In this document: positions 3,314-62,224 of the stretch, in pieces
Numbering within the stretch: position 1 is the stretch's first letter
Layout of the letters: the number at the start of each line of letters is the position of its first letter
Notes under the pieces: generated by a model
What the model saw: only the letters and a program-made list of their open reading frames with translations
The model's database searches: none
Told to the model about the DNA's origin: nothing
Assembly: GCA_034422875.1 (NCBI GenBank)
Contig: DAOUJI010000079.1
Span: 9,928-73,927 of the forward strand
Source of the DNA: Dehalococcoidia bacterium
GTDB taxonomy: Bacteria > Chloroflexota > Dehalococcoidia > Lucifugimonadales > JAGWBF01
Direction of reading: 5' to 3'
DNA length: 64,000 nucleotides
Made by a program: the position numbers and the translations under genes

Positions 3314-3361
3314 TCGAGCCGCCTATGTTGGCAAAGGTCGTCCATCAGATGCGGACGCCCT

Positions 3362-4528
3362 CTAGCTCACCTGAGACCGGGAAGGCAGCTCGACCTCAAG
3401 GCGGGCCGTACCGGTGGTGTCGCCCCGCTGGTTGTTGCAACGGGTCTCGCACTCAACCATGCGGCGACCGCCCTCAATCCACTTGCGGGTGACTTTTCCC
3501 TCCACCCAGGTGGTGTCCCCCTCGATGTTGAAACGGCGCAACTCGTTGTAGTACTTCCGCAAAAAGCCGTGGTCGCCCATCCAGTTGGTGACAATCTGAG
3601 CGAGCCACGACCCCCTCTGGGGACCCAGGTCGTAAATGCCTGGGAGAGCGATAATCTTGGCCATGGTGTCTTCCCAGTGGCCTCGGTGGGGGTGGTCGGG
3701 CACACCGGTTTCCGGGTCCGGCTCTGCAAAGGCGGCGTGTTTTTTGAATGATTGCCATCGATGGTAGTGGGAGCCGCCTGGACTGCCCCCCGCCCCCATG
3801 TTGAAGGCGTCAAAGCGACCGGCGCCGAATATTATGTCAACAACTCTCAGGGGACCGCGCACCACGGGAGGCAGGACTTCGCCTTCGACCACGTCCTCCC
3901 AATGCCTGGGTTCGGCGCCGCGTATCTGTTCCTTGTCGTATGCGTCCCAAATCTCCTGCAGGTCCTCATCGGAGTACCTGGGTTTTTCAGTTCCTTTGTA
4001 GACGTCCCTCTCCCTGGCGGCGCGCCTCTCAGTCCGTACGCTCCACGCTCTCCCCTTGGCCATCGCATGCCCCTTGCCGTTGACGTACAGCGTCTGCGCT
4101 GACTGGATAACCACGTGACCGGCGTAGCTGCTGGTGGGTTTTTCGACGACGCTGTACGGCCGGTACGAGGCGCTTATCACGTCACCGGGCCTGATGGGCT
4201 GGTAATACTCCCACTCGCTGCCGCCGTAGAAGGTGTGGACACCAGGCAAGCCGCCCATGTTGGCCGCCGTGGTGGAGCGTATGGTCCACAGGTACATGGG
4301 GAAGGCGACCATGGCGCCGTAGTGTGTGGAGCGGCCGTAGTCCGGGTCGACGTACAACGGGTTGCGCTCTCCCAGGCCCATTCCGAACGTCCTGATGGAG
4401 TCGGCGGAAATCTCTCCCACGTGGCGAACGCCGTGGTAATAGACCCCCAACCGGCCTCGGAGCCGCTCAATGCCCTCCGGCGTTATTGTCCCGAATGAAC
4501 TGCGGTCAGTCGACATGCGTTCCGTCAC
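3362..4528 (-). CDS. Double hot-dog MaoC/FAS1-like dehydratase
   Basis: N-terminal NPLYVDPDYGR...FP and GGSEWEYYQPIRPGD; C-terminal PDHPHRGHWED...YDLGPQR and GDTTWVEGKVTRK. Confidence 0.85.
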   Translation of the reverse strand: MTERMSTDRSSFGTITPEGIERLRGRLGVYYHGVRHVGEISADSIRTFGMGLGERNPLYVDPDYGRSTHYGAMVAFPMYLWTIRSTTAANMGGLPGVHTFYGGSEWEYYQPIRPGDVISASYRPYSVVEKPTSSYAGHVVIQSAQTLYVNGKGHAMAKGRAWSVRTERRAARERDVYKGTEKPRYSDEDLQEIWDAYDKEQIRGAEPRHWEDVVEGEVLPPVVRGPLRVVDIIFGAGRFDAFNMGAGGSPGGSHYHRWQSFKKHAAFAEPDPETGVPDHPHRGHWEDTMAKIIALPGIYDLGPQRGSWLAQIVTNWMGDHGFLRKYYNELRRFNIEGDTTWVEGKVTRKWIEGGRRMVECETRCNNQRGDTTGTARLEVELPSRSQVS

Positions 4529-4772
4529 AAGTCCCTAGACCAATCTCTGAGTCTGTGCACATCTGATGAGGTTGTGCATCAAGTGCGTAAAACAGCAATC
4601 CAAACGATACAGAGGGCCATTTCCTTTGTCAAACCTGAAGGACCGTACTCTAATGACAGGCCCCTAAGAGAATCCGTAAACGAATATGGTTTTCACGCCT
4701 GACGGCGCCTTGCAGAGGTCTCCCCATCTCTATAAAATCGCCCGCATTGGGTCGCAGTCGGGAGGGGCGGGG

Positions 4773-5543
4773 ATGCGAATCGCCAGGTTCAAAAAGGGGA
4801 GGCTGACCGCCTACGGTGTGGTGGAAGGCGATGAAATCCTCGAAATCCGGGGAAGCATCTACAACAAGTTCCGCGTCACCGACAACCACTTCAACCTGGC
4901 GGACGTGAAGCTCCTCTCCCCCACCAATCCCCAGCAGATATGGTGCCCCGGCCCCAACTTCTCACACGACAACGGTGACTACGACCCTGAACTCAAGCCT
5001 TCCGGCAGCCCCGAGCCCTGGCAAAAGGGGCGCAACTCCCTCATCGGACCCAACGAATACATCGTGCTTCCCAAGGACTCCGCGGGAGAGGTCCATGTAG
5101 AAGGGGAAGCGGTGGCCGTGATAAGCAAGCCCTGCCGCCGCATCAGCAAAGAAAAAGCGCTGCGTTATGTGTTGGGATACACGTGCGGCAACGACGTCAG
5201 CGAACGACAGTGGCAGTGGGACGACCGCCACCTATGGCGGGCAAAAGGCGCCGACACTTTTGCCCCCGTTGGGCCGTGGATAGAGACCGAAGCGTCGCCA
5301 TTGGACTTGAGAGTAAAAGTGAAGGTCAACGGCGAAGACGTCCAAAGCTCGTGCACCTCCGACATGGTCCACGACTTCGCGTCCATCATCAGCTACATCA
5401 GCCAGCAAGTCACGCTCCAGCCGGGAGACCTGGTATTCTCAGGCTCTCGCGGTGACCACGCGCCCATAAAAGCCGATGACGTGGTCGAGGTCTCCATTGG
5501 CGGAATCGGCACGCTGAAAAACACCGTCCGCATGGAGGACTGA
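4773..5543 (+). CDS. Fumarylacetoacetate hydrolase family protein
   Basis: MRIARF...YGVVEGD N-terminus, EGEAVAVI, GYTCGNDVSER, KGADTFAPVGP, TLQPGDLVFSG; start moved to ATG 4773. Confidence 0.9.
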   Translation: MRIARFKKGRLTAYGVVEGDEILEIRGSIYNKFRVTDNHFNLADVKLLSPTNPQQIWCPGPNFSHDNGDYDPELKPSGSPEPWQKGRNSLIGPNEYIVLPKDSAGEVHVEGEAVAVISKPCRRISKEKALRYVLGYTCGNDVSERQWQWDDRHLWRAKGADTFAPVGPWIETEASPLDLRVKVKVNGEDVQSSCTSDMVHDFASIISYISQQVTLQPGDLVFSGSRGDHAPIKADDVVEVSIGGIGTLKNTVRMED

Positions 5544-5570
5544 TTCCGGCCAGACAAGACCTGAAACAAG

Positions 5571-5602
5571 AACATGGGCGCCTCGTCTGAGGCGCCCATG
5601 TT
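5571..5602. terminator. Probable bidirectional terminator hairpin
   Basis: Perfect 14-bp stem AACATGGGCGCCTC-GTCT-GAGGCGCCCATGTT between convergent genes. Confidence 0.75.
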
Positions 5603-5640
5603 TGTTAGCAGTAAACGGCGGTGTGTCAGCCGAATCAGGT

Positions 5641-6783
5641 CTAGCTGATGCCGTATGTCCGGGCTGCGTTGTCCCAGACTATCTTCTGCTTCTCCTCATC
5701 GGTGCATCCCGCGAGCACCTCTTCGGCGACCTTCCGAGACATGGGGAAGGTGCCCTCGTCGTGCGGGTAGTCAGCCCCGAACTGGATGTTGTCCACACCG
5801 ATGATGTCCCTGAGCCTCATGGTGTAGGGGTCCTGTTGGAAACCCACGAAACAGTTGGTCTTCCAGAAGTCGCTGGGCATTGCGTCGTTCTTGAACCGGA
5901 CCGGGCACATGGTGAGCCTGTCGGTGTAGGTGTAGTCGATGCGCTCCAGGAAGTGGGGTATCCACGACACCTCATGCTCGATAATCCCAACCTGAAGCCC
6001 CGGATAGCGCTCGAACACTCCGGCGAAGATCATGTCCCCTAGTGAGTTCCTGGGCCAGAAGTCCACGTTGCTGAGCCAGGACGGAGTCAGTTTGCTGAAG
6101 TCCATGAACTCGTTTTCGGGTCCGGGCCTGTTGCAGCCGATGTGGAATGAAATCGGCATCCGGAGGTCCTGGCAGGCGGCCCAGAACGGCTCGTACATCT
6201 CATGGTTGTACCTCATGCCGGGACTTGGCCACACGGGAACCAACGCTCCCACCATTCCCATCTTCTTGCACCGCTCCAGCTCCTCAATCGCCTTGTCGGG
6301 CAACTCCGGGTTTATCAGGGCGATACCGTAGAGCCTGTCGGGGTGGGCCGCGCAGTACTCTGAAAGCCAATCGTTGTAGACCTTGTGCAGCTCGTGCAGG
6401 AACTCCCGGTCCTCGATCCTGTAAAGGTGGAGTCCCAGGGTAGAGTAGTGAATTGCCTTGTCGATGCCGTCTATGTCCAGGTCCTTGACCCTTTCGTCGG
6501 GGTCGTAGGCGCCCGGACGGAGATGCTCTTCACGGGTGCGGGTGCGCCCAATCTCAGCGCGAACTTCAGGGTCATCCTCGTAGCGCCTTCCTGGATGAGT
6601 GCCGGGCGACAGAGGCACCAGCGGGAAGTCACCGTAGTACCACATGTCCAGGTCGTCAAGGCTCCTCAGCCGGGGCGCCCTGTCCTGGAGGTTTTTGGGC
6701 AGCCTCGTGACCCACAGGTCCGATCGTTCGAACGTGTGGTCATCGGCTGACAGAATCTTATATCCTTCAAGTCCTTGAGCCAT
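5641..6783 (-). CDS. Amidohydrolase_2 family metal-dependent hydrolase/decarboxylase
   Basis: SADDH, ISFHIG, FGADYPHDEG and KIVWDNAARTY motifs. Confidence 0.9.
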   Translation of the reverse strand: MAQGLEGYKILSADDHTFERSDLWVTRLPKNLQDRAPRLRSLDDLDMWYYGDFPLVPLSPGTHPGRRYEDDPEVRAEIGRTRTREEHLRPGAYDPDERVKDLDIDGIDKAIHYSTLGLHLYRIEDREFLHELHKVYNDWLSEYCAAHPDRLYGIALINPELPDKAIEELERCKKMGMVGALVPVWPSPGMRYNHEMYEPFWAACQDLRMPISFHIGCNRPGPENEFMDFSKLTPSWLSNVDFWPRNSLGDMIFAGVFERYPGLQVGIIEHEVSWIPHFLERIDYTYTDRLTMCPVRFKNDAMPSDFWKTNCFVGFQQDPYTMRLRDIIGVDNIQFGADYPHDEGTFPMSRKVAEEVLAGCTDEEKQKIVWDNAARTYGIS

Positions 6784-6874
6784 TTCCTTCCTCCTGTCTC
6801 AAAGCTTCCTGTTCATCTGAGAACACACCTTGCGTGTTCCGTAACCGATATTACATTTTACTCCGGTTTGACCC

Positions 6875-6910
6875 CAAGCGGAAGGCAGCCTACTTGCCTT
6901 CCATCGCTTG
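6875..6910. terminator. Stem-loop just after the M20 gene (terminator or attenuator-like)
   Basis: CAAGCG-GAAGGCA-gcctact-TGCCTTC-cat-CGCTTG; no clear U-tract. Confidence 0.45.
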
Positions 6911-6917
6911 CGGAGGT

Positions 6918-8093
6918 TTACGCCACGTACCGCAGCGTGGCTTCCGTCATGATTTGCGCGGCGATGGGAAGGGAGTCCTCGTCTATGTCGAATTGAGCGC
7001 TGTGGTGAGGGGCAGTGATTCCCTTGGCGGCGTTGCCGCAGCCGACCAGGAAGAAGCAACCGGGAGCCTGCCTCAAGAACAAAGTCACGTCCTCGCCCAA
7101 TTGCAGTGGAGTTATGGTCACGACGTTCTCAGTTCCAACCACCGTCTGGGCCACCTCTGTCACCAGCTTGGAAACCTCTTCGTCGTTGACCACCGGCGGC
7201 ACGCCTACGATGTGCGTGAACTCACAGTCGCCTCTCATGGCCTGGGCCACCTGGGAGGATATTTCCTCTATTCGCTTTAGTATGTAGTCCCTGACCGAGT
7301 CGTCCAGGGTCCTTACCGTTCCAGCCAGCTCCACCGTGTCTGACACCACGTTGAATGCCGTGCCTCCCTGTATCGTGCCAAAGCCCAGCACCCCGGTCTG
7401 GGTGGGAGCTATCTCGCGACTGAGAATGGTCTGGAGGGCCGTGATGACGTGGGCGGAGATAAGGATGGGGTCCACGGAGAGGTGGGGCATGCCGCCGTGG
7501 CCGCCTTTCCCTTTGATTGTCAACTGTATTCCATCGGCGCTGGAGAATATGGGCCCCGGCTGGGCTGTCACCTGGCCCACCGGCAGCCCGCTCCATAGAT
7601 GGAAGCTGAGGGTCCGGTCCACTTTGGGGTCCCTCATGGCCCCATCGTCAATCATCTTCTGGGCGCCGCTGGCTATCTCCTCCGCCGGTTGAAAGGCCAG
7701 CTTCACATTACCCTTGAGAGCATCCCGGCGCCGGCTGAGCAGGTCGGCCACCGCCAGTCCCACTGCCATGTGCCCGTCGTGGCCACAGGCGTGCATCCGG
7801 CCTTCCACTTGCGATGAGTAAGGGCGGTCCATGGGCTCCTGGACCGGCAGAGCGTCCATGTCCACTCGAATAAGGACTGTGGGGCCGGTTCCTGAACCAC
7901 TCAATTGACCCAGTACGCCGGTCTCTCCCACTCCGGTGCGCACCTGCCAGCCAAGGCCGTCCAGCCTCTCAGCAACCACCCCGGCAGTGCGGTGTTCCTG
8001 GAAGGCTAGCTCCGGGTGCCGGTGGAAGTCCCTGCGGTCTTCAACCAGCCGGTCTCGGATGCTCTCCACGTCGCCAGGTTTTAAGTTGGACAT
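6918..8093 (-). CDS. Peptidase M20D family amidohydrolase
   Basis: HRHPELAFQE, RVDMDALP, MHACGHDGH, FQPAEE and PHHSAQFDIDE motifs. Confidence 0.93.
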   Translation of the reverse strand: MSNLKPGDVESIRDRLVEDRRDFHRHPELAFQEHRTAGVVAERLDGLGWQVRTGVGETGVLGQLSGSGTGPTVLIRVDMDALPVQEPMDRPYSSQVEGRMHACGHDGHMAVGLAVADLLSRRRDALKGNVKLAFQPAEEIASGAQKMIDDGAMRDPKVDRTLSFHLWSGLPVGQVTAQPGPIFSSADGIQLTIKGKGGHGGMPHLSVDPILISAHVITALQTILSREIAPTQTGVLGFGTIQGGTAFNVVSDTVELAGTVRTLDDSVRDYILKRIEEISSQVAQAMRGDCEFTHIVGVPPVVNDEEVSKLVTEVAQTVVGTENVVTITPLQLGEDVTLFLRQAPGCFFLVGCGNAAKGITAPHHSAQFDIDEDSLPIAAQIMTEATLRYVA

Positions 8094-8199: not shown

Positions 8200-8838
8200 T
8201 TGGAAGAATTGCGCTTATTCCCGCTGAACACAATCCTGTTTCCGGGCATGCCATTGCCTCTGCGCATCTTTGAGGAGCGATACAAGCTCATGATTGGGGA
8301 ATGCCTGGACAAGGAAGAGCCTTTTGGCGTGGTGTTGATTAAGGAAGGGCCGGAGGTTGGAGGCCCCGCCGCCGTCTACAGCGTGGGCGTCACAGCCCGC
8401 ATCGACGAGGTGGAGCATTACGAAGAAGGCCGCATGAGCATCTCCACGATGGGTGAGAAACGCTTTCGAATTGTCGAGATCATCCAGGACGTCCCTTACA
8501 TGAAGGGAAGCGTCGAATATATGCCGGAAGACCCAGGGCCGGATGAAGAAGACCATTACCCGCAGGCAGCGGAGATGTTCGGAGCTTATATCAGGCTTTT
8601 GGGAAGCCTCGGTGGAGGCTGGTTGGTCGAAGTCGAAATCCCTGAAGAACCGATGTCCCTGAGCTACACCATCGCCCACTACCTGGACCTTCCCCGCATC
8701 GCGAAGCAACGGCTCCTGGAAATACCCACTCCCGGAGAGCGACTGAAGTACGAGATACCCCTGCTGGAAGGCGCCACAGAGCGTCTACGCGAAGCGGTGG
8801 AGAGGCGCAACCCCTACCAGGGCCCCCGCCTCAACTAG
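8200..8838 (+). CDS. LON peptidase substrate-binding (N-terminal) domain protein
   Basis: LFPLNTILFPGMPLPLRIFEERY, KQRLLE; no ATPase or protease domain. Confidence 0.9.
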   Translation: MEELRLFPLNTILFPGMPLPLRIFEERYKLMIGECLDKEEPFGVVLIKEGPEVGGPAAVYSVGVTARIDEVEHYEEGRMSISTMGEKRFRIVEIIQDVPYMKGSVEYMPEDPGPDEEDHYPQAAEMFGAYIRLLGSLGGGWLVEVEIPEEPMSLSYTIAHYLDLPRIAKQRLLEIPTPGERLKYEIPLLEGATERLREAVERRNPYQGPRLN

Positions 8839-9362: not shown

Positions 9363-10280
9363 CTAACGCCAAACCCGAGAGGCCCCGCCTTGGGGCACCA
9401 TGCCTGAGAAGAGTTCCGGGTGAATTATCTCCGCCAGTATCTCCAGCCCGTTGACCAGGCGCGGCCCGGAGCGGTTGAAATAGGCGCTGCCGTCCACCGC
9501 AAACACCCGACCGTCACGTACGGCCGGAATCGAGTCCCAACCCGGCCTCTCCTTTAACTTGGGCGCTTCCTTCAATGTGTGCGGCAAGTCAAAACCGCAG
9601 GGGCAGAGCATGATGACATCCGGCTGCTGCTCCACAACCTTTTCCCATGCAATGGTGAAGGTTGGCTTGTCCTTGTCTCCCAGGCAGTCCTCGCCTCCGG
9701 CCATTTCCACCATCTGGGGCACCCAGTGGCCGGCCACCATGACAGGGTCGAACCATTCGATGCAGGCAACTTTCGGACGACGGTCGGCGAGCGCCGCTAT
9801 ACTCTTGACACGCTGGACCCTTCGGTCCAACGACTCCACGTACTGCTCCGCAGTCGCTTCCACTCCCGCTGCCCGTCCCACCGTGCGGATGTTGCTGAAG
9901 ACGTCCTCTATGCAAGTCGGATCGAGCGAGATGATTCGGGGCTGGTTTTCCAGTTTCTTCGTTGCGTCGGCAACCTGCCGCGCGGTAATCGCTCACTCCG
10001 CGCATAACTCCTGGCTGAGGAGGAGGTCGGGCTGTATCTCCATGATGGCTTCTTCGTCAATGTCGTAGATGCCCTTTTCTTCCCGGAGCCTCTCGGCCAC
10101 GATGGCGTGGATTTCACTGCTGGTGTAGTCGCCGTCCTGAAAGATGCTGGAGACTATCTGTCTGACCTGTTGGGCCTGAGGAGGATAGTCGCATTCGTGG
10201 GAGACGCCGTAGAGGCTGCCCCCCAGCCCAAGGGCGTAGACCATCTCCGTGGCGCTGGGAAGGAATGAGCAGATTCGCAT
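9363..10280 (-). CDS. BtuF-like (cobalamin/iron substrate-binding fold) protein, probable selenoprotein with Sec at codon 96 (TGA 9993-9995)
   Basis: ORF-track pieces 9993-10280 and 9363-9881 are in one frame; the 37 codons between them are open; the joined 305-aa protein has MRICSFLPSATE, SHECDYP, QELCAE*AI, IEWFDP..VAGHWVPQM, CPCGF and YFNRSGPRL. Confidence 0.85.
9964..9983 (-). promoter_or_regulatory. Putative bacterial SECIS hairpin
   Basis: GCG-CGGCA-GGU-UGCCG-A-CGC at nt 10-29 after the UGA; apical GGU at +18..+20 versus +19..+21 in E. coli fdhF (GCAGGU core, recalled from memory). Confidence 0.7.
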
Positions 10281-10292
10281 AATCGCCCTCTC

Positions 10293-11699
10293 TTACGTTA
10301 TCTGATAGCCCTTTGGAGCGTACGCCGCCAGATTGGGGTCTCCGGGAAGGAATCCTCCTGCTCCTTGACTGCCGACGAATTCTCCCTTCTCCATCACGAC
10401 CCGGCCCCGCTGCATGGTAAGCTCCGGCATTCCCATAAGCTCGAACCCGTCGAAGGCGGAGTGGTCGGTGTTCCCGTGCTGGCCGTCCACCGTATGCTCC
10501 TTGGCCGGGTCCCAAATCACAAGGTCGGCGTCGGAACCGGGTTGAAGCGTCCCTTTCTTTGGGTACAGGCCGAATATCTTGGCCGGGTTCTCACAGAAGA
10601 CCTGCACCATCCTTGGGAGGCTAATGCGCCCCGTGTTCACGCCAAGGGTCCACACCACCGGCATCATGAATTCAATCGTATTCAGCCCATGGGGGGCGTC
10701 GAATATGTTGTCGCCGCCCACCGTCTTCTGTGCGACGGTGCGGCCTCCGGAGTCGCTGGCGACCACGTTTATCGTTCCGTCGGCCAACGCCTGCCACAGA
10801 GCTTCCTGGTCAGGACTCTTCCTCAGAGGTGGCCCAACTTTAGCCAGCGGCCCCCGGCGGGACATTTCGTCGTCAGTAAGCGCAAGATAGTGGGGACAGG
10901 TCTCGGTGAAAAGCTGGAGACCCCGGCCTCTGAATTCATGCACCAGCGGGATAGACTCCTTGGTACTAAGGTGCACGGAGTAGAGGGGTGAGCCCGCCAC
11001 TTGAGAAAAAGTGGAGGCGCGGTACAGCCCTTCCGCCTCCAGGATGTTGGGCTGAGATGGGGGATAGTATTCAGGGCCAATCTTTCCGTGCCCAATATGG
11101 TCGTCCACCAGATAATCGATGCAGCAGGCGTTCTCGCAGTGGACCATGGGCAGACCGCCCTCGCTGGCCGCCAGGTCCATGGTTTTGAGCATTCCGTCCT
11201 CGGTTATCGCCATGCCACGTCGCTTGTAGGCCAGGAACATCTTGAAAGAGATGACCCCCAGCTTCATTAGCTCCGGGATAGACTTGCCCAGGATGTCTTC
11301 GTCGGCGGCTGTGTAGGTGCCGTGGACGGAGAAGTCCAGGTGGGAGATGCGTTCTCCTTCGTCTATGAACCCTTTGACAAGGTCGGTGGTGTACCCGTTA
11401 AAGCCCCAGCCGGCGACGTTGCCCACGAATGCGATGACTGTGGTCACGCCGCCGTAGGCTGCGGTGACGGTGTAGGCGTCCATTTTGTCGGAATAGACGG
11501 GATGGCAATGGGCGTCGACGGAGCCGGGCAAAACATAGCGGCCAGCGGCGTCTATTGTCCGGGAGACCCCTACCCCAGACAGGTCGGGGCCGACCTGAGC
11601 GATACGCTCTCCCGAAACCAGTACATCGCCCCGGGAAATCCCCTGGCCTGAAACCAGAATCCCGCCCTTTACCAGTACGTCTCCTCTTGGGGACGCCAT
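10293..11699 (-). CDS. Dihydropyrimidinase/hydantoinase-like cyclic amidohydrolase
   Basis: PGSVDAHCH, SFKMF (carbamylated Lys), MVHCEN, VHLST, ETCPHYL, PPLR, KGTLQPGSDADLVIWDP. Confidence 0.9.
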   Translation of the reverse strand: MASPRGDVLVKGGILVSGQGISRGDVLVSGERIAQVGPDLSGVGVSRTIDAAGRYVLPGSVDAHCHPVYSDKMDAYTVTAAYGGVTTVIAFVGNVAGWGFNGYTTDLVKGFIDEGERISHLDFSVHGTYTAADEDILGKSIPELMKLGVISFKMFLAYKRRGMAITEDGMLKTMDLAASEGGLPMVHCENACCIDYLVDDHIGHGKIGPEYYPPSQPNILEAEGLYRASTFSQVAGSPLYSVHLSTKESIPLVHEFRGRGLQLFTETCPHYLALTDDEMSRRGPLAKVGPPLRKSPDQEALWQALADGTINVVASDSGGRTVAQKTVGGDNIFDAPHGLNTIEFMMPVVWTLGVNTGRISLPRMVQVFCENPAKIFGLYPKKGTLQPGSDADLVIWDPAKEHTVDGQHGNTDHSAFDGFELMGMPELTMQRGRVVMEKGEFVGSQGAGGFLPGDPNLAAYAPKGYQIT

Positions 11700-11707
11700 G
11701 GGCCAGG

Positions 11708-12463
11708 CTACTCTTCAGAGACTACCGGGTTGGACAAGACGCCGATACCTGGCACGTCGATTTCCACTGTGTCCCCGTGGTTAAGTCCTGCCGGTTTGCC
11801 CGACGTGCCCATGAATATCATGTCGCCGGGCTCCAGGGTCATCCTGCGGGATGTCCACTCGATGATGGTGGGCAGGTCGAACACCATCCCGGACGTGCTC
11901 TCGGCCTGCACTTCGGCGCCGTTGATGCGGGCGGTGAGCATGGCGTCGAAGGGGTCGATTTCGTCAGATATGAACGGCCCCACGGGAGAGAAGGTGTCGG
12001 AGGACTTAGCCCTCCACCATTGGCCGTCTCCCCTTTGCCACTCACGGGCGCTCACGTCGTTGCCGCAGGAGTAGCCCAGCACGTAGTCAAGAGCTTCTTC
12101 CTTGGGAACGTTCCGCGCCCGCTTGCCGATGATCACCACCAGCTCGCCTTCCTCTTCCACCGTCTCGGCGTCCCTGGGCCGGATGATGGGGTCGCCGTGG
12201 GCCGCAAGAGACGACGGGGTCTTGAGGAATATAAGGGGCTGCGTCGGCGTGGGCCTGTCTCCCAGATGGCTGTAGTAGTTGAGACCCACCGCCAGAATCT
12301 TGGACGGGGCCGTAGGAGTAAGCAGCTTCACCTCTGCCAACGTGTGGGTGTGGTCGGTGACCTCATAGGACTCGTAGGGCGGGGCGGTTAGCTGGCGGAC
12401 GATGTCGCCGTCCACTACGCCGTAGGCTACTTCTCCGTGGGCCAGGTAACGTGCAAACTTCAT
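11708..12463 (-). CDS. Fumarylacetoacetate hydrolase family protein
   Basis: VGLNYYSH, FLKTPSS, EEEGELVVIIGK, CGNDVSAR, AKSSDTFSPVGP, TLEPGDMIFMGT. Confidence 0.93.
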   Translation of the reverse strand: MKFARYLAHGEVAYGVVDGDIVRQLTAPPYESYEVTDHTHTLAEVKLLTPTAPSKILAVGLNYYSHLGDRPTPTQPLIFLKTPSSLAAHGDPIIRPRDAETVEEEGELVVIIGKRARNVPKEEALDYVLGYSCGNDVSAREWQRGDGQWWRAKSSDTFSPVGPFISDEIDPFDAMLTARINGAEVQAESTSGMVFDLPTIIEWTSRRMTLEPGDMIFMGTSGKPAGLNHGDTVEIDVPGIGVLSNPVVSEE

Positions 12464-12509
12464 GGCTTCCTCCTAAGGCTCGTAAGATTGGTTTCTTTAG
12501 GTGGTTCTT

Positions 12510-13541
12510 CTAAGGGGTCTGCAACACCAGCTTGCCGAAAAAGTCGCGGCTCTCCATGGTTCGATAAGCTTCCGTCGCATCTTCCAGGGGAAAGGTCTTG
12601 CCAACGACACCCCGGATGCCTCCCGTTCTTATTACCCTCATCATGTCGCCAAAGCTACGCTTACTGCGTCCGCCGCTGCCTAGCAGTGACAAGGGCGTGC
12701 CGCTTAGCTGGGAAAGGTTCAAGGAGTAGTTTGCCCCGGAGTGGGTCCCGGTGATAACCAGGCGTCCCCCCGGCTTGATGCAAGCCAGGCTCTCGTCCCA
12801 TACCTCGGCACCCACGCTGTCGAAAACAAAGTCCACACCCTGGCCGTCGGTGAATTCTTTCACCACCTGGCTGAAGTTGGGAGTTGTGTTGTAGTTGATG
12901 CCCAAGTCGGCGCCCATTTCCCTGGCTTTGTCCAGCTTCCAGTCGCTGCCAGCAGTGGTGATGACACGGGCGCCTACGTGCTTTGCGATGGCTATGGCCG
13001 TGGAGCCGACACCGCTGCCTGCGGCGTGAATGAGTATGTCGTCCCAAGGCTGTAGCTTGCCCCTCTCGATGAGGCAATGCCACGAAGTATGGGTCGCAAC
13101 TGGGAAAGCTGCCGCCTCGTCAAACCCCATCCAATCAGGGATGACGTGGGCGTTGACGGCCGGTACAACGCAGTATTGGGCATGGCCTCCGTCGATGTCG
13201 GACCCCAAACGCATTTGTTTCGGGCAATACTGGTCGACGCCAGCGCGGCAGCGGTCACAGGTGTAGCACTTGACCCGGTTGTCGATAAGGACCCGGTCGC
13301 CCTCCTTGAGCCAGTCCACGGTGGGGCTGACCTGGGCCACTTCTCCGGCCATGTCCAGGCCGAAAATCCTGGGCAGGCTCCGGGTATTGGTCCTGCCGCT
13401 GATTATGTAAAGGTCTGCGTGGTTGAGGGCCGACGCCCGTACCCTTATGACGACCTCACCCGGTCCGGCTTCGGGGTCCGGCCGGTCTCCGTACTTCACA
13501 TTGCTCAGGTCGCCCGTCTGATCGAGATAGATGGCTTTCAA
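12510..13541 (-). CDS. Zinc-binding medium-chain dehydrogenase/reductase
   Basis: GEVVIRVRASALNHAD, structural-Zn CYTCDRC...C, AAGSGVGS NAD(P) site, FFGKLVL; probable TTG start at 13541 after GGGAG. Confidence 0.88.
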   Translation of the reverse strand: MKAIYLDQTGDLSNVKYGDRPDPEAGPGEVVIRVRASALNHADLYIISGRTNTRSLPRIFGLDMAGEVAQVSPTVDWLKEGDRVLIDNRVKCYTCDRCRAGVDQYCPKQMRLGSDIDGGHAQYCVVPAVNAHVIPDWMGFDEAAAFPVATHTSWHCLIERGKLQPWDDILIHAAGSGVGSTAIAIAKHVGARVITTAGSDWKLDKAREMGADLGINYNTTPNFSQVVKEFTDGQGVDFVFDSVGAEVWDESLACIKPGGRLVITGTHSGANYSLNLSQLSGTPLSLLGSGGRSKRSFGDMMRVIRTGGIRGVVGKTFPLEDATEAYRTMESRDFFGKLVLQTP

Positions 13542-13747
13542 GGCTGGCGCGCTCCCAATTGCCCCGGACGCCCTAAAGTCAGCGTCCGCCCGTATCTTAC
13601 CCCAGGCGCCAAAGCCCGTCAAAGGAGATGCTGGGCCAAACGCAAATCCACATCGTCGAATGTACAGTACATGCCATTAAAGGCGTTATATAATTCCCGC
13701 ATCCCGGCTATAATCGACACGCCATTGAACAGTTCATAGAAATTCCG

Positions 13748-14275
13748 ATGCCATTCCTTCATCCTAGTCCTCTAGCCATGCGATTAGTACGTTACGTCAT
13801 AGCGTTCGGGGCTTTGGCGATGGCGGTTGTGTCAGTCCTCGCCTGCTCGTCTCAACCCGGTGACACTGCAGTCCCGTCAGATCCGACGGTGCGCTCCGGC
13901 CAGCAGGTCTTCGCTTCCATCTGCGCCGCTTGCCACGGAGTCGGAGGGGAAGGTCAGGAGGACTGGCACGTCCCAAAGGAAGACGGAACTCTGCCAGCTC
14001 CCCCCCTCAACGGCGACGGCCATACCTGGCATCACGGCGACGGGCTGCTGTACCAAATCGTCAGCCAGGGAGGTAAATCCCTAGAGAGCCCGAACGTCCC
14101 CAACTTCAAAAGCGCCATGCCTGCCTTTGGAGACCTTCTTAGCCACGAAGAAATCATCGCCGTCCTGACCTATGTCAAAAGCCTCTGGGAAGACAAGACC
14201 AAAAGGGGCATTTCCATCGTGGAGTCCCAGGGCCGGGCAAGCGAATTAGACCCGTTCCCGGTGGCGCGCAACTAA
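13748..14275 (+). CDS. Mono-heme cytochrome c lipoprotein
   Basis: Lipobox VLAC, CAACH heme motif, PAPPLNGDGHTWHH, SAMPAF distal Met. Confidence 0.88.
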   Translation: MPFLHPSPLAMRLVRYVIAFGALAMAVVSVLACSSQPGDTAVPSDPTVRSGQQVFASICAACHGVGGEGQEDWHVPKEDGTLPAPPLNGDGHTWHHGDGLLYQIVSQGGKSLESPNVPNFKSAMPAFGDLLSHEEIIAVLTYVKSLWEDKTKRGISIVESQGRASELDPFPVARN

Positions 14276-14440
14276 ACGTCTACACCGACACCATACAGGA
14301 ATTCCTCAAGTCTAGTTCCCCGATTCGTTGATATGGCCCGGTGGCTTGGCGGCAAGCTGTACCCCACCCGGTCCGATTCTTGCTGCTGCCCAACCAGTTG
14401 TTTCCGCGAAACGGCCAACAACAATATCACACTTGAAATC

Positions 14441-16234
14441 CTATAGTTCCCGATAGTAATCCCGTACCTTTGTGGACATGAGCCGTCTACGCTCCTGGAG
14501 GAAATCGTCGTAGCCTTCAACCCCTACGGTATCCATCCCTGCCGGGATGCAGTGCGCCGTTAAGTTCTCCTGCAACTGGTCAGAGTCCGTAATCCCTCCA
14601 TAGACGGGGGCGTTGCTTTTGCACTGTTTCCACAACTCTGAGAAGTACTTTGACGGCGGGCTGTCACTAATAGCAATGTTTATTTCACTCTGCATTACCA
14701 CATAATTCGCGATCTGATTGTATCGACCACGTTGGAATCCTTTCTTCATCAAATAGTTTCGCGGGAACACATGATGTATATGTGACTGGCCTTGAAGAAG
14801 ATTCTGTACGGTCAGATCCCGTGAAAGGAAACCTTTATCGTTTCCCTTCACTTGACTCGCGAGGAATACGTTAAAATATGGGCTGCTGGCAACGGACGTG
14901 TCCATTTGTTGAGGCAGGCCCACATCCCAGAATGCATCGGATAGTTCAGCCCGTTCGATTGTATCGAGATAAGCCGATGCCCCTTGATTATCGATGTTTC
15001 CAACATCTACACCGAAGGTCGTTTCCGGCGCACCAGTGTATCTACCCGTTAGAACTGACATCACAAACCATCGGCGCACTAGCGCCTCAATGCGCTCTGC
15101 CGATTCACCCTGCCTACGTAATATCAAGTAGAGTATATACCCGAAGTTTACGGTGTTCTGGGACCTGATAAGTGAGGAATCCACGAATCCTGCAGAGCGC
15201 AGGATCATAATGAACTTTTTGAAATTAGTCTCGTTCATGTACCGCAGTATTCCGTCGCTAAGCTTGTGGAAGGACTCTTCGGCAATGGCTTCCTCGTATG
15301 TGCGTGTCACGAAATTACGACCTGAGAGAAGAGCAACTAAATCCTCTAAGCGCCCTCTCTTGAACTGTGACGTAAAGACGACCCTGAGCATGTCGGTATA
15401 TGAAGGGTCATAGAGGTCGTCCTTCTCCTCCTTCATCCATTTCATGGCCCGAAAGTAGTCCGTTGCGGCAAAGGCGTCGTCGTTTGCCAAGTCATTGTAT
15501 GCTTCCGGAGCTACGGCGAGGTGGCAGAAGTAGTCGATGCATTTTCGTAAGAGGTGCCCACCGTGCTGTTCACTGGCAGCCATCTTGGACATAACGAAGT
15601 CCGCGGCGTTCAGCGTGACACCCTGGGAGTTGATTCGAACGAAAATGTCGGCGACCGTCTCCACATCAAGGTCAGCGTTCAGGTCAATCAGGCCTAGAGA
15701 GTTGTGCTGGATGCCATCAAGCTGTTTCAAACTTTCATCTATCTTGCGTTTTTCGGCGTTCGGGTTCGCTTCACAGTACTCCTCGAGTAGTTGGAGCATC
15801 CAGGCATCTGGGGCGAATACCTTGGCGATATCAGAAATCCATTCTGGGTCGCGGAGAATCGCAGCGTTGACCACCTCAAAGCGTTCCTCACCGGGATGAA
15901 AGGCTATAGATATCCTCCTTCGCTTATAGTCTCTGTCGACAACCGGTTCACCAAGCAACGCGGCTAGGAGGGCCGTCACGCGTTGCTGGCCGTCAATCAG
16001 GACGCGCTTTCCGCTGGACTGAGTGCCGTCTTTTAAGCGTACGTCCGGGTTTTGCCATGCGATGAGATACCCAACAGGATAACCTCTATAAAGAGAATCT
16101 ATAAAATCACGCACCTTGGCAGCGTTCCACACAAAGGGGCGTTGTATCTCAGGAATGGCAATCTGCTCGGACTTGATCCAAGTTAATAGAGTTTGAATGG
16201 GGTACTGATTAACTGAGTAACGCTGAACAGGCAT
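14441..16234 (-). CDS. GmrSD-family (DUF262 + HNH-like) modification-dependent restriction endonuclease
   Basis: [31 protein letters not shown]-terminal HIHHVFP...N...N; start ATG 16234 after AGGAGG. Confidence 0.88.
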
Positions 16235-16585
16235 CCCGATTCCTCCTACGGACATTTAGCACTGTCATTAGACTTGTGGGTACACTGTCTTCCGCATCCA
16301 TCCGATTCAAAGAGTCGTTTCCAGCCGCCACCTATCTCCACTGACTAGTTCAGGATGCGGAGCCCTGTATACGCTTAGGTCTGATGACCCCAGGATTCTC
16401 GAGTAAGCAGAACAGATGGGCTGGACTGCCTTCGATTTCTTTTGTTCGTCATCAGGTTCAATCGGAGTGCCTAGGTCGACGGACTCGGTCTAGTTTATAA
16501 TATGTGTCCGTCTGCTGCATCTGATAATGCATTATGACCCAGGACTCAGTTTGATATTCATACGTTCCTCAATTACTTTGTAGTC

Positions 16586-59940: not shown

Positions 59941-61239
59941 TCAGTCTTTCAACTCCTGAACCGCCCTGCGGAACGCTTCCAGTGTAGCATCGATCTCATT
60001 TTCGTGGGCCAGGGAGAGATAAATCTTTTCCGGCCATCCCTTAAGGACGCCCTGGTCCAGCAAGAGTCGGGTGAATTCAACCATCTTGCCAGCGTCGGCT
60101 TTCAGGGTGTCGCGGTAGTCATTCACTGGCTGATCGGTGAACAAGAGGCCAAAGATAGGGGCCTCTCCTACGACAGCAACCGGAATCTCTGCCTCGGAGA
60201 AAACCTGCGAAATCCCTTCCTTTAACTGCGTGCCAAGGGCATGCAGCTTAGCGTAGGCGCCCTCCTTCCTGAGTTCGGCCAGGGTCGCCAAGCCGGCGGC
60301 TGCGGCGACGGGGTTTCCGTTAAGGGTCCCTATCTGTGGAACAAAGGAGTTGGTTTCTTGGGCCGACGGGTCGAATGCGGACAAGATTTCTTCCCGTCCT
60401 GCCACGATGGCCAGAGGATACCCGCCTCCGACAATCTTTCCCATCGTGCACAGGTCAGGAGTGACGCCGTAGTATTCCTGAGCTCCCCCATAGGCCAACC
60501 TGAAGCCGGTGACCACCTCGTCGAAAATCAGGGGGATTTCATAGTGGGCGGTGATGTCCCTAAGCTGCTGGAGGAACCCCGGCGCGGGAGGTATCACTCG
60601 CTGCTGAGGTTCGATGATGACGGCTCCCAGGTCGTCGTGGTTCCTCTCGATGATGGCTGCCACGGTCTCTATATCGTTGTAGGGAGCCACCAACACTGTG
60701 TCTGCAACCGCTGCGGGGATTCCGGCCGAGTTCGGAACAGGCTCGGGAAAGTCTCTGAGCTGTGAAGCCGGGGGGTTCAAGCTCATCAGTGCATAGTCGC
60801 TGCTGCCGTGGAAGCCACCCTCGAACTTCAATATCTTGTCCCGCTTACGGTAGGCTCTGGCGATTCGCATGGCCTGGAAACAGGCGTCGGTCCCGCTCGT
60901 CGTGAAGCGGACCTGGTCGGCGCAAGGGACGGCTCTGACGACTTCCTCTGCCAGCAGAATGGCCCGTTCGTTGACGGCGAAGAAGGTGCTGCCCTCTTCA
61001 ACAGCTTCTACAACCGCTTCAACCACACTTGGATGAGAGTGTCCCAAGACAAGAGGGCCCGAACCCATGAGGTAGTCGATGTACTCATTGCCCGCTGCGT
61101 CCCACACCCGCGAACCCTTCCCCTTGGTGAGGACGAGGGTTCTCTCGGCGTCCGGAATGGGGTTGCCCATGTTGGAACCGGGAAAAAACTGGGAAGCCTT
61201 GGCAAGAAGCTCGGCTTCCCGATTGGCGCCGTATGTCAT
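59941..61239 (-). CDS. Class-III PLP aminotransferase (glutamate-1-semialdehyde aminomutase-like)
   Basis: EYIDYLMGSGP.VLGH, TSGTDA, FEGGFHG, LIFDEVVTGFR, TMGKIVGGG, GTLNGNP; start ATG 61239. Confidence 0.88.
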   Translation of the reverse strand: MTYGANREAELLAKASQFFPGSNMGNPIPDAERTLVLTKGKGSRVWDAAGNEYIDYLMGSGPLVLGHSHPSVVEAVVEAVEEGSTFFAVNERAILLAEEVVRAVPCADQVRFTTSGTDACFQAMRIARAYRKRDKILKFEGGFHGSSDYALMSLNPPASQLRDFPEPVPNSAGIPAAVADTVLVAPYNDIETVAAIIERNHDDLGAVIIEPQQRVIPPAPGFLQQLRDITAHYEIPLIFDEVVTGFRLAYGGAQEYYGVTPDLCTMGKIVGGGYPLAIVAGREEILSAFDPSAQETNSFVPQIGTLNGNPVAAAAGLATLAELRKEGAYAKLHALGTQLKEGISQVFSEAEIPVAVVGEAPIFGLLFTDQPVNDYRDTLKADAGKMVEFTRLLLDQGVLKGWPEKIYLSLAHENEIDATLEAFRRAVQELKD

Positions 61240-61282
61240 TGTAGTATCTCCCTTGGGAAGGAACGTGACGGGTCGGCAGCCC

Positions 61283-62224
61283 TTAGCCTTCCGAGTCCGC
61301 CTTTTCCATGACTTCAATCAGCTCTTTGACGCTGGCGGCGGATTTGTCCAAGGCCGCCTTCTCTTCAGGAGTGAGGCTGATTTCGATGATCTGCTCCATG
61401 CCTGCCGCCCCCAGCTTGACGGGCACGCCCACATAGAGGCCGTTGATGCCGTACTCTCCGTCCAGGTACACGCAGCAAGGAAGGATGCGCTTCTTGTCCA
61501 GGAGCACGGCCTCCGCCATCTGAACGATGGCTGCTGACGGGGCATAGAAGGCGCTCCCCTGCTTCAGCAGCGCGACGATTTCTCCGCCGCCTTGCCTGGT
61601 GCGTTGCACCAGAGCCTCAATGCGGTCGGCGGACAGCAACTCGGAGATGGGAATGCCGCCCACGGTGGTGTACCGGACCAAGGGCACCATGTCGTCGCCG
61701 TGACTGCCCAGCACGTAGGCTTGCACGTCCTCCACGGACACGTCCAGTTCCTGGGCAATGAATGTACGGAACCGGGAGGTGTCGAGGATTCCGGCCATTC
61801 CGAACACCCGCTCCCGGGGGAAGCCGCTGATGTTGTAAGCATGCTGGACCATGGCGTCCAGTGGGTTGGTGACTACAATCAGGATGGCGTTGGGAGAATG
61901 TTTGACCACCTCCTCAGTCACGGAGCCTATGATTTTCATGTTGGTGAGGAGCAGGTCGTCGCGGCTCATTCCGGGACGCCGGGCGATTCCCGCGGTGATA
62001 ATCACCAGATCGGACTCAGCGGTTGCTTCATATCCGTTGCTGCCGGTAATCAACGCGTCGGTCCCCAGCACCGGTCCCGACTCCAGCATGTCCAGCGCTT
62101 TTCCCTGGGGCATGTCTTCCACCACGTCCACTAGGACTACGTCAGCATAGCCCAGGGCGTGGATTCTCTCTGCGGTGGTGGCGCCGACGTTGCCGGCGCC
62201 CACGACCGTCACTTTCTTGCGCAT
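61283..62224 (-). CDS. mdh: Malate dehydrogenase (LDH-like)
   Basis: [38 protein letters not shown]. Confidence 0.95.

Follow-up and report, generated by a model that had tools for sequence, protein, structure and literature searches.

A predicted cytoplasmic BtuF-like selenoprotein of Dehalococcoidia with a possible role in corrinoid handling

Results

A BtuF-like gene at the end of a four-gene cluster

We analysed a gene for a BtuF-like protein with a CxxU motif in a stretch of Dehalococcoidia DNA (64 kb in full, hereafter the window), and our preferred reading, to which we assign a probability of roughly 0.55, is that its product is a cytoplasmic selenoprotein that binds or processes a corrinoid through a redox-active or cobalt-ligating CxxU, and that its adjacency to catabolic genes is lineage-specific. 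The gene (PBP) is the last of four co-oriented genes (Table 1), with 46, 8, and 12 nt separating the dehydrogenase, FAH, amidohydrolase and PBP genes in turn, as the original prediction had described. The dehydrogenase orthologue called in a related locus (L001) is of the same length, and the amidohydrolase scored 369 bits against TIGR02033, just under the equivalog cutoff of 393, consistent with a member of that family. A GAGAGGG Shine-Dalgarno sequence lies between the amidohydrolase stop codon and the PBP start, and no minus-strand terminator-like site was found inside the cluster; given these features and the short gaps, including the 12-nt gap before PBP, the four genes are probably co-transcribed in the window lineage. 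A search for sigma-70-like promoters returned one match, with 1.8 expected by chance. Using tblastn across the whole window, we detected no FecCD permease, BtuD-like ATPase, DUF71, CobO or TonB receptor, in agreement with the earlier statement that no permease or ATPase gene is nearby.

Table 1 Features of the cluster and its surroundings, in window coordinates.
Feature	Position	Strand	Remarks
Stand-alone LON substrate-binding-domain protein	8200..8838	+	Convergent with the PBP gene
PF01497 (Peripla_BP_2) BtuF-like Sec protein, signal-less (PBP)	9363..10280	-	305 aa with U96; Pfam match
SECIS-like hairpin (putative)	9965..9982	-	Stem columns 14-19 pair with 25-28 and 30-31, bulged A29; loop AGGUN
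In-frame TGA, read as Sec codon 96	9993..9995	-	Second position of the CxxC/CxxU motif; aligned with an invariant Cys
Dihydropyrimidinase/hydantoinase-like cyclic amidohydrolase	10293..11699	-	468 aa; TIGR02033 match below cutoff
FAH-family hydrolase/isomerase	11708..12463	-	251 aa; Rv2993c-like N-terminal domain
MDR-family zinc-type dehydrogenase (Zn-ADH)/quinone-oxidoreductase-like protein	12510..13541	-	343 aa; TTG start
Single sigma-70-like promoter match (TTGACG, 17 nt, TAAGAT)	13594..13622	-	53 nt upstream of the dehydrogenase start; weak

Selenocysteine at an in-frame TGA

Gene callers annotate the PBP gene as two ORFs, and its closest database entries are C-terminal fragments because those callers stopped at the TGA. 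When the codon was aligned across 86 related loci, 23 carried TGA and the other 63 TGC or TGT (61 from the first alignment, plus L085 and L086). All TGA loci belong to Dehalococcoidia or Chloroflexi, with proteins 48-94% identical to that of the window, and 22 of the 23, as well as the window, differ from one another over the 42 nt that follow the TGA.

A SECIS-like hairpin begins 10 nt downstream of the UGA and may assist its decoding as Sec. Published bSECIS criteria (PMC13188914, section 5) specify a loop of 3-9 nt with a G in its first two positions, a stem of at least 4 bp, a distance of 16-37 nt from the UGA, and an MFE of -7.5 kcal/mol or lower; the hairpin lies within all four, having the loop AGGUN, a stem of 4+2 bp with a bulged A, a UGA-to-loop spacing of 16 nt, and an MFE of -11 to -22 kcal/mol. 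It had no match among the Rfam SECIS families. Pairing was retained in 97% of cells, and UG, GC, and CG are all found at pair 15-30. The sequence CGG-CAG-GUN-GCC-GA follows the UGA in all Sec forms (24/24), with variation confined to the wobble position in the loop, and where Cys-form relatives share the residues R-Q-V, their codons are CGC CAG GTC ACG, CGT CAA GTG GCG, or CGC CAG GTG TCC; synonymous sites of the hairpin are frozen in the Sec forms only.

We read codon 96 as Sec because the TGA pairs with an invariant Cys, is always a TGA, and is followed by a SECIS-like hairpin whose synonymous sites are frozen. The annotation as two ORFs would fit a real stop, either in a pseudogene or between two separate small genes, but this is exceedingly improbable: both flanking halves remain intact and alignable end to end in the 24 Sec forms (the window and 23 loci), at identities to the window as low as 48%, the stop is TGA in all 23 loci with an in-frame stop and falls at the site of a catalytic-type Cys, and the hairpin with its frozen sites comes after it. 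Judged by this comparative evidence, the TGA at codon 96 is far beyond chance and the gene encodes a true selenoprotein, as had been proposed. A tRNA search of the window found none, and Sec machinery was not seen within it; at the level of the class, Dehalococcoidia MAGs carry 46-49 selenoprotein genes (PMC13326102), which supports the Sec reading.

Predicted cytoplasmic location

The PBP reading frame opens with MRICSFLPSATE, and an M-R-I-C-S start is shared by 41 of 52 homologues. The TAA stop codon of the amidohydrolase gene lies in the PBP frame four codons upstream of the start, so no N-terminal extension, and hence no signal peptide, is possible. Across homologous loci, 65 of 84 have no start codon at least 15 codons upstream. 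Since a signal peptide is absent, the protein is predicted to be cytoplasmic, and on this point the initial proposal of a signal-less, cytoplasmic protein stands.

Fold and conserved residues

The protein belongs to a large and phylogenetically wide family of signal-less class III SBPs with a BtuF fold. It matched Peripla_BP_2 with an E-value of 1.2e-25 and aligned with E. coli BtuF at 97% probability in hhalign, and an AF2 model of a Cys homologue with 53% identity (pLDDT 92.4) predicted a two-lobe class III SBP fold. The Cys motifs listed in the original prediction (HECD, CAEU, CPCG) are present as HEC30D, C93-A-E-TGA96, and C226-P-C228-G, and C30, D31, C93, C/U96, H185, W186, C228, and R270 are invariant in the family. 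According to the profile alignment, the four residues of the CxxC motif are inserted between G87 and G88 of BtuF, C30 adjoins the Tyr50 position, and R270 occupies that of Arg246. The insertion is placed in the Trp85 loop of E. coli BtuF, which lines the B12 pocket. Loops bearing C30, H185/W186, and C228 are predicted to face the same cleft as CxxC/U, a point that the original prediction had put forward for checking.

Compared with E. coli BtuF (the periplasmic B12 binder of BtuCDF; PDB 1N2Z, 1N4A), the window protein shares the class III two-lobe fold and the Arg246 equivalent, but it lacks a signal peptide and, in the window, adjoining btuCD genes, and it contains an insertion of ~28 residues (residues 43-70). 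Neither Trp66 nor Trp85 is conserved, an invariant Gln (Q90) standing at the Trp85 position, and of the equivalents of the docking Glu residues, the E72 site is variable and the E202 site is acidic in 41/52. The NCBIfam BtuF model NF002894 gave 49 bits, far below its cutoff of 234. The missing export signal, the missing btuCD pairing in the window and this low score set the protein apart from BtuF proper, the periplasmic SBP of BtuCDF.

Genomic neighbourhood among relatives

The original prediction had made the protein a partner of the dehydrogenase, FAH, and cyclic amidohydrolase, supplying metal, cofactor, or redox function to the catabolism of a cyclic amide or N-heterocycle. Likely co-transcription speaks for such a link, as does the persistence of the arrangement in L001 and in L002, where the PBP is 76% identical. 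FAH and DHPase orthologues also occur 2.4-5.5 kb away in L005 and L007, and a DHPase-like amidohydrolase is found directly upstream in the unrelated L041 (distant Rokubacteria, Cys form), a partial analogue. Full adjacency of ADH, FAH, DHPase, and PBP, however, was confined to the window and two close relatives, L001 and L002. The remaining 21 Sec-form loci lack the adjacency, as do 62 of the 63 Cys-form loci, the one left being L041 with its upstream DHPase-like gene. A sister lineage has different genes directly upstream of the PBP: the gene there is a divergent LVIVD-repeat gene in L005 and L007, and two CoA-transferase genes lie upstream in L006. The neighbours in other loci are unrelated. 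None of 20 metagenome DHPase homologues had an adjacent PBP, FAH, or ADH, and hydantoinase or FAH chemistry has no need of an SBP-fold partner. Because the next lineage no longer keeps the adjacency and other lineages lack it, a conserved functional module of these four genes is not supported, and we consider a catabolic partnership quite improbable. We take the PBP to have come to lie behind these genes recently and in this lineage alone. Across Dehalococcoidia, the LON-domain protein is the sole conserved neighbour, lying downstream in ~27 loci.

Association of Cys-form homologues with B12 loci

Clusters for B12 uptake or salvage surround the gene in seven Cys-form loci, which come from several phyla. 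In L049, L052, L069, and L044, a cobalamin riboswitch is followed by a TonB receptor and then the CxxC protein; L049 and L052 continue with a PBP paralogue bearing a signal peptide, an ATPase, and FecCD, preceded in L052 by DUF71, and in L069 a Cys-rich CWC gene comes after the CxxC protein. The order in L028 is BtuF-like protein, FecCD, ATPase, DUF71, CxxC protein, and CobO, and L043 and L070 are similar. In L050, L053, and L066, DUF71 is directly upstream of the CxxC protein. The DUF71-B12 subgroup (PF01902) has been linked to B12 salvage by prediction (de Crecy-Lagard et al. 2012, PMC3541065); it is a PP-loop ATPase, and so a different protein from the one studied here, that neighbours Cys-form family members next to BtuCDF-type genes.

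The family had been expected to stand apart from btuCD, and this did not hold, as homologues from some of the phyla do adjoin btuCD-type genes; each of these loci (L028, L043, L049, L052, L069, and L070) has a separate PBP paralogue, on which a signal peptide was seen in L049, L052, and L069. In the family tree, the B12-associated loci are spread over several of the deep branches. The occurrence of the family in uptake and salvage loci under B12 riboswitches suggests corrinoid handling inside the cell, a link that rests on Cys forms with 42-50% identity and on ~10-13 of the 63 Cys-form loci. For the Sec forms of Dehalococcoidia we infer a corrinoid ligand and the associated chemistry; around the 24 Sec-form genes, and in the rest of the window, we found neither a cobalamin riboswitch nor a transporter, DUF71, or CobO. 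This lack of B12 genes near Sec forms counts against a corrinoid, as do the loss of Trp66 and Trp85 and the NF002894 score.

The same residues could also be explained by a cytoplasmic metal or Fe-S protein, such as a chaperone for cobalt or zinc, or else a redox protein, that holds no corrinoid. The four invariant Cys and the His on both lobes could equally form a metal or Fe-S site, with C30, C93, C/U96, C228, and H185 ligating metal directly across the cleft in the manner of TroA; the aromatic residues with which BtuF stacks B12 are not kept, and a small Cys-rich CWC/DUF5522 protein follows the CxxC gene in five Acidobacteria-type loci. Nevertheless, we regard this as unlikely, given that the associated TonB and FecCD importers under cobalamin riboswitches, DUF71, and CobO act on corrinoids rather than free metal, that the closest structures are tetrapyrrole binders, and that the Arg246 equivalent is invariant. 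Those structures, the best PDB matches in Foldseek, are haem- and B12-binding class III SBPs, among which RhuT, PhuT, BhuT, ShuT, and IsdE scored equal to BtuF, and a cytoplasmic binder of haem or another tetrapyrrole with Cys or Sec as axial ligand would be compatible with them. There is little chance that this is correct, as no neighbourhood showed genes for taking up or degrading haem and every riboswitch found was of the cobalamin class.

Discussion

The selenoprotein itself is not new, since a 2026 review (Zhang et al., PMC13188914) tabulates a CxxU "Cobalamin-binding protein BtuF" (cd01144, one Sec; example MDE0719563.1), citing Peng et al. 2016; the earlier suggestion of an undescribed selenium-dependent module falls accordingly. 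The window protein, with its BtuF-type domain, single Sec, and CxxU motif, is almost certainly of the same family, matched through the table description. That source gives the family as a table entry, whereas location, SECIS, neighbourhood, and function are not given there, and the main text and examined supplements of Peng et al. 2016 make no mention of a CxxU BtuF family.

Another group of SBP-fold selenoproteins, SaoB and SaoX of the SAO system (Haft and Gwadz, bioRxiv 10.1101/2022.07.06.499078), has Sec and Cys clustered in the ligand pocket, and its ligand has been proposed to be a metal or an organometallic compound. These proteins differ in being exported by signal or lipoprotein peptides, in having CU or CC motifs, in SBP class, and in being encoded in a locus of nine genes that includes a Sec-containing permease. 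The window protein has no CU/UxP motif, no signal peptide, and no match to the SAO models NF040727 and NF040735.

As to function, the original prediction had left several options open, of which corrinoid handling is favoured by the comparative data and partnership in a catabolic pathway is not. In CblC (MMACHC) and BtuM, a thiol(ate) serves to remove the cyano or alkyl group from B12. Their folds are unrelated to that of the window family, and the likeness, by analogy only, would lie in a proposed S or Se nucleophile or ligand acting on the upper or lower ligand of cobalt after uptake. In our proposal, imported corrinoid would be bound and chemically processed in the cytoplasm, with Sec in place of the second Cys of the invariant CxxC, in the loop that contacts B12 in BtuF. 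The thiol/selenol pair may ligate cobalt, or may carry out reductive decyanation, dealkylation, or reduction, chemistry in which Sec would be expected to outperform Cys as a nucleophile, and the processed cofactor would then be handed to an adenosyltransferase or to remodelling enzymes.

A selenocysteine codon in a BtuF-like gene

The BtuF-like protein encoded at the end of a four-gene cluster in the window (PBP) is interrupted by a single in-frame TGA (see table), which we evaluated by comparison with its relatives. A search of 5.8 billion proteins (E ≤ 1e-10) recovered more than 5,000 of these; the closest three (94, 85, and 70% identity) are C-terminal fragments only, and full-length relatives of ~304–313 aa share ~52% identity with PBP. 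The C-A-E-TGA of the window aligns with an invariant C-x-V-C in the relatives, and the two closest contigs, L001 and L002, carry the same TGA. Scanning one genome per species gave at least 599 matching stretches, of which 80 loci were kept. Across 86 related loci (L001–L086), the codon-96 column is TGA in 23, is TGC or TGT in the remaining 63, and is TAA or TAG in none (0/86); that the gene is a pseudogene or a split gene is a highly implausible reading. The TGA forms all belong to Dehalococcoidia or Chloroflexi MAGs, and their proteins are 48–94% identical to that of the window.

The nucleotides 3′ of the UGA read CGG CAG GUN GCC GA in all 24 Sec forms (the window and 23 loci), with only the Val wobble position varying. 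Because Cys-form relatives encode the same Arg-Gln-Val with other codons (CGC CAG GTC ACG, CGT CAA GTG GCG, or CGC CAG GTG TCC), the constraint acts at the RNA level and is confined to Sec forms. In the resulting hairpin, alignment columns 14–19 pair with 25–28 and 30–31, leaving A29 bulged and AGGUN in the loop; 97% of cells are paired, and pair 15–30 is seen as U-G, G-C, and C-G. A stem without the bulge gave 85% pairing and zero covariation, so the bulged-A29 model was preferred. The hairpin agrees with the bacterial SECIS consensus given in PMC13188914 on each of its four points: its loop is 5 nt, its stem at least 4 bp, a G lies within the first two positions of the loop with G/U after it, and it lies 16 nt from the UGA, with a minimum free energy of −11 to −22 kcal/mol. 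Rfam scans (the window at gathering thresholds, and the surroundings of the TGA at E ≤ 10) returned no match and no catalogued SECIS family, which is uninformative on SECIS because the bacterial SECIS models in Rfam are clade-specific. ARAGORN detected no tRNA genes in the window, and hence no tRNA-Sec there; few bacteria are as rich in selenoproteins as Dehalococcoidia MAGs, which carry 46–49 such genes (PMC13326102). On these comparative grounds we consider codon 96 of PBP to be selenocysteine, and the call to be sound.

In a neighbor-joining tree all Sec forms fall in one Dehalococcoidia clade, which also encloses two groups of Cys forms (L003/L004 and L085/L086); exchange between Sec and Cys has thus occurred repeatedly. 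The L085 contig, besides its Cys form of the BtuF-like protein, has two consecutive ORFs that both match UGSC, a known selenoprotein family, and probably represent a single Sec gene divided at the TGA. A crude screen of the window for other TGA-interrupted ORFs gave a sole long candidate, which was rejected as antisense to two real genes. The Sec assignment also corrects gene models, as the PBP gene is routinely split into ORFs of 95 aa and ~200 aa in Dehalococcoidia MAGs.

A BtuF fold without an export signal

The start of PBP reads MRICSFLPSATE. The TAA of the upstream amidohydrolase lies in the PBP frame four codons 5′ of the PBP ATG, with a GAGAGGG ribosome-binding site between them; this excludes an N-terminal signal peptide in the window. 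Among homologues, 41 of 52 begin with M-R-I-C-S directly at the first beta-strand, 65 of 84 loci have no start codon 15 or more codons upstream, and the possible extensions in the remaining loci are neither hydrophobic nor conserved. The original prediction of a signal-less, and hence cytoplasmic, protein is thus borne out by the in-frame stop and by these loci.

An AlphaFold2 model of P0002, a Cys homologue 53% identical to PBP, has a pLDDT of 92.4, and in the PDB it best matches small class III substrate-binding proteins for haem or B12 (4M7O, RhuT, V. cholerae BtuF, PhuT, BhuT, and E. coli BtuF). We mapped the cleft by profile alignment to E. coli BtuF (probability 97%; query sequence identical to the PDB chains). 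The CxxC tetrapeptide (CxxU in Sec forms) adds four residues between Gly87 and Gly88, within the Trp85 loop that contacts B12 in BtuF; C30 adjoins the Tyr50 position, and H185/W186 and C228 lie in C-lobe loops, so that the Cys and Sec residues map to loops predicted to face the cleft. The position of Arg246 is occupied by an invariant arginine (R270) and the equivalent of Glu202 is acidic in 41 of 52 family members, whereas Trp85 is replaced by an invariant Gln and the equivalent of the docking residue Glu72 is not conserved. The family thus comprises cytoplasmic BtuF-fold proteins whose ligand-pocket loop carries an invariant CxxC/U insertion.

PBP differs from canonical BtuF in export signal, transporter pairing, and model score, failing on each: no NCBIfam model claims the family, and the BtuF model gives 49 bits where its cutoff is 234. 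Nor is it one of the Sec substrate-binding proteins of the SAO system (bioRxiv), which are exported, carry CU motifs, and belong to another class; the SaoB and SaoX selenoprotein models of NCBIfam do not match it. A Sec-BtuF selenoprotein family is already catalogued as a table row in PMC13188914, and the family goes unmentioned in the available portions of the text and supplements of Peng 2016, the source cited for that entry. Our literature search found no paper describing a cytoplasmic CxxC paralogue of BtuF.

Genomic neighbourhood of the gene

Four co-oriented genes with a signal-less PBP as the last were confirmed in the window sequence, as was the lack of a transporter nearby: tblastn with FecCD, BtuD-type ATPase, DUF71, CobO, and TonB receptor queries gave zero matches across the whole 64 kb. 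There is one weak promoter-like match 5′ of the dehydrogenase and no terminator-like site within the cluster; given this absence and the 12-nt gap, PBP is likely co-transcribed with the upstream genes.

The order dehydrogenase–FAH–amidohydrolase–PBP occurs only in the window, L001, and L002. The next Sec-form lineage (L005–L007; PBP 61–63% identical) has FAH and amidohydrolase orthologues 2.4 kb upstream in L005, where a divergent LVIVD-repeat gene adjoins the 5′ side of PBP, the amidohydrolase 5.5 kb away in L007, and two CoA-transferase genes upstream of PBP in L006. Other Sec- and Cys-form loci have unrelated neighbours, such as pantothenate kinase with CoaBC, an Na/H exchanger, queuosine genes, aminotransferases, HSP70, and SDR. 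None of 20 amidohydrolase homologues from metagenomes lies beside PBP, FAH, or the dehydrogenase, and the window's amidohydrolase had no exact match in the contig index. The original prediction took the cluster to make PBP a partner of a catabolic pathway; with a neighbourhood that is not conserved this reading fails, and we consider it improbable, with the caveat that a Rokubacteria MAG (L041) independently has a dihydropyrimidinase-like gene directly 5′ of its Cys form. This is the sole independent echo of the window's arrangement, and FAH and dehydrogenase are absent there. The adjacency is a lineage-specific accident, and the suggestion of an undescribed selenium-dependent module does not hold for a family already catalogued.

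Across Dehalococcoidia a single neighbour is retained, a stand-alone LON substrate-binding-domain gene found downstream in ~27 loci with Sec and Cys forms, at PBP identities down to 43%. Near the Sec-form gene in one Dehalococcoidia subclade, it is followed by a four-domain rhodanese and, in all but one of these loci, a molybdopterin oxidoreductase-domain protein; this recurrence is probably clade synteny, although S or Se trafficking is within the reach of rhodaneses. An M20 amidohydrolase beyond the PBP gene is syntenic in L001, L002, L005, and L006, and together with the hydantoinase-like gene recalls hydantoinase-plus-carbamoylase pairs, its match to the carbamoylase model being weak (E = 4e-10). 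Assembly frameshifts, not pseudogenization, most likely account for the split ORFs of L002. On the other side of the cluster, a GmrSD-type restriction endonuclease in a GC dip suggests a small acquired defence island.

Features of the window and of related loci
Locus	Feature	Position	Strand	Remarks
Window	Four-gene cluster	9363-13541	-	Intergenic gaps 46, 8, 12 nt
Window	MDR zinc-type dehydrogenase	12510..13541	-	TTG start; 343 aa, as L001 orthologue
Window	FAH-family protein, Rv2993c-like N-domain	11708..12463	-	
Window	Dihydropyrimidinase/hydantoinase-like amidohydrolase	10293..11699	-	TIGR02033 369 bits, just under 393-bit cutoff
Window	PF01497 periplasmic-binding-protein-type-2 protein (PBP)	9363..10280	-	One in-frame TGA, codon 96
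Window	In-frame TGA	9993..9995		
Window	LON substrate-binding domain (PF02190, ~212 aa)	8200-8838	+	Convergent, immediately 3′ of PBP; also L003, L005-L017, L019, L020, L025, L030, L057, L059, L079
Window	M20 amidohydrolase (CpsA/aminoacylase-like, TIGR01891)	6918-8093	-	1.3 kb beyond PBP, same strand
Window	GmrSD-type endonuclease (PF03235 N-domain)	14441-16255	-	
Window	GC dip	14001-16000		0.52 vs ~0.60
Window	Second GC dip	40001-42000		0.51
Window	Rejected TGA-interrupted ORF	61079..62134		
L002	Dehydrogenase, FAH, amidohydrolase	3205-6264		Each split into several ORFs; 2x-coverage contig
L041	Dihydropyrimidinase-like amidohydrolase	6520-7986		38% identical to window's
L085	UGSC ORFs (PF24696)	15887-16201, 16235-16444		
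L009, L010, L011, L013, L014, L019	Rhodanese 3′ of LON			Oxidoreductase-domain protein next in all except L011
L049 (bacterium HR37)	Cobalamin riboswitch, TonB receptor, ~500-aa secreted protein, CxxC protein, signal-peptide PBP paralogue, ABC ATPase, FecCD	6438-7928 (~500-aa protein)		
L052 (Ignavibacteriales)	L049 order, DUF71 between CxxC protein and PBP paralogue	3884-5389 (~500-aa protein)		
L069, L044 (Acidobacteriota)	Riboswitch, TonB receptor, CxxC protein			CobO just 5′ in L044
L028 (Bipolaricaulota)	BtuF-like, FecCD, ATPase, DUF71, CxxC protein, CobO adenosyltransferase			
L043, L070	Similar to the B12 uptake/salvage loci			
L050, L053, L066	DUF71 directly upstream of CxxC protein			
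L048, L050, L053, L063, L069	Cys_rich_CWC + DUF5522 protein, ~115-156 aa			Directly 3′ of CxxC gene

Cobalamin loci of the cysteine forms

A subset of the Cys forms occurs in a B12-regulated genomic context, and B12 uptake and salvage is the only functional theme that recurs across phyla near the family, its loci being spread over several deep branches of the family tree. A bacterial DUF71 subgroup has been predicted to act in B12 salvage, with 75 of 102 genes adjoining B12 transporters (PMC3541065). A covariance model built from the riboswitch matches found no cobalamin riboswitch in the window, nor in any of the Sec-form loci. Homologues do co-occur with btuCD, which the original prediction had named as a ground for refutation, but the family member there is an additional, signal-less protein encoded next to a distinct PBP paralogue, which has a signal peptide wherever its N-terminus was read (L049, L052, L069).

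Against this background, the main rival to a corrinoid ligand, a direct metal or Fe-S site built by the four Cys and the His, appears unlikely, and haem, a ligand of the structurally matched binding proteins along with B12, is a good deal less likely again. Five Acidobacteria-type loci encode a small Cys-rich protein 3′ of the CxxC gene, a candidate redox or metal partner. L049 and L052 encode a ~500-aa secreted or lipoprotein-like protein with a weak DUF5074 match, in the interval that separates the CxxC protein from the TonB receptor under riboswitch control; it may be an extracellular corrinoid-capture protein.

A possible role in corrinoid processing

To our knowledge, corrinoid handling between BtuCD and the adenosyltransferase or remodelling enzymes is poorly defined in prokaryotes. 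Our overall reading, to which we assign a probability of roughly 55%, is that the family consists of cytoplasmic BtuF-fold proteins that bind or process imported corrinoid, where ligand and chemistry are what we infer. In such a scheme imported corrinoid would be bound in the cytoplasm by the CxxC/U protein, the thiol/selenol pair would ligate cobalt or would remove or reduce the upper ligand, and the corrinoid would then be handed over to CobO or DUF71-type enzymes; in the Dehalococcoidia clade, Sec would act as a better nucleophile than Cys. The specific processing-enzyme chemistry is a tentative part of this proposal. Equally speculative is the fuller version, in which the family would be an uncharacterised cytoplasmic B12-processing enzyme or chaperone conveying corrinoids from BtuCD to CobO/DUF71 after preparing them, with a Cys-to-Sec upgrade at the active site in a large Dehalococcoidia clade; a bacterial and archaeal counterpart of CblC-type decyanases/dealkylases, or a corrinoid reductase, is a candidate role that we advance with the same reserve.

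Members of the family occur in many bacterial phyla and in archaea; although cytoplasmic, they carry the annotation of a periplasmic transporter subunit. The value of the finding lies in the combination of this location, the pocket CxxU, and the association with riboswitches, DUF71, and CobO, which gives a widespread, mis-annotated family a testable function. A riboswitch-controlled cytoplasmic paralogue of BtuF, with a redox-type CxxC/U in its pocket, is a concrete candidate for a corrinoid step after BtuCD and, if the B12-processing reading is true, would be the first case of a substrate-binding-protein fold turned into a selenoenzyme for cofactor trafficking inside the cell.
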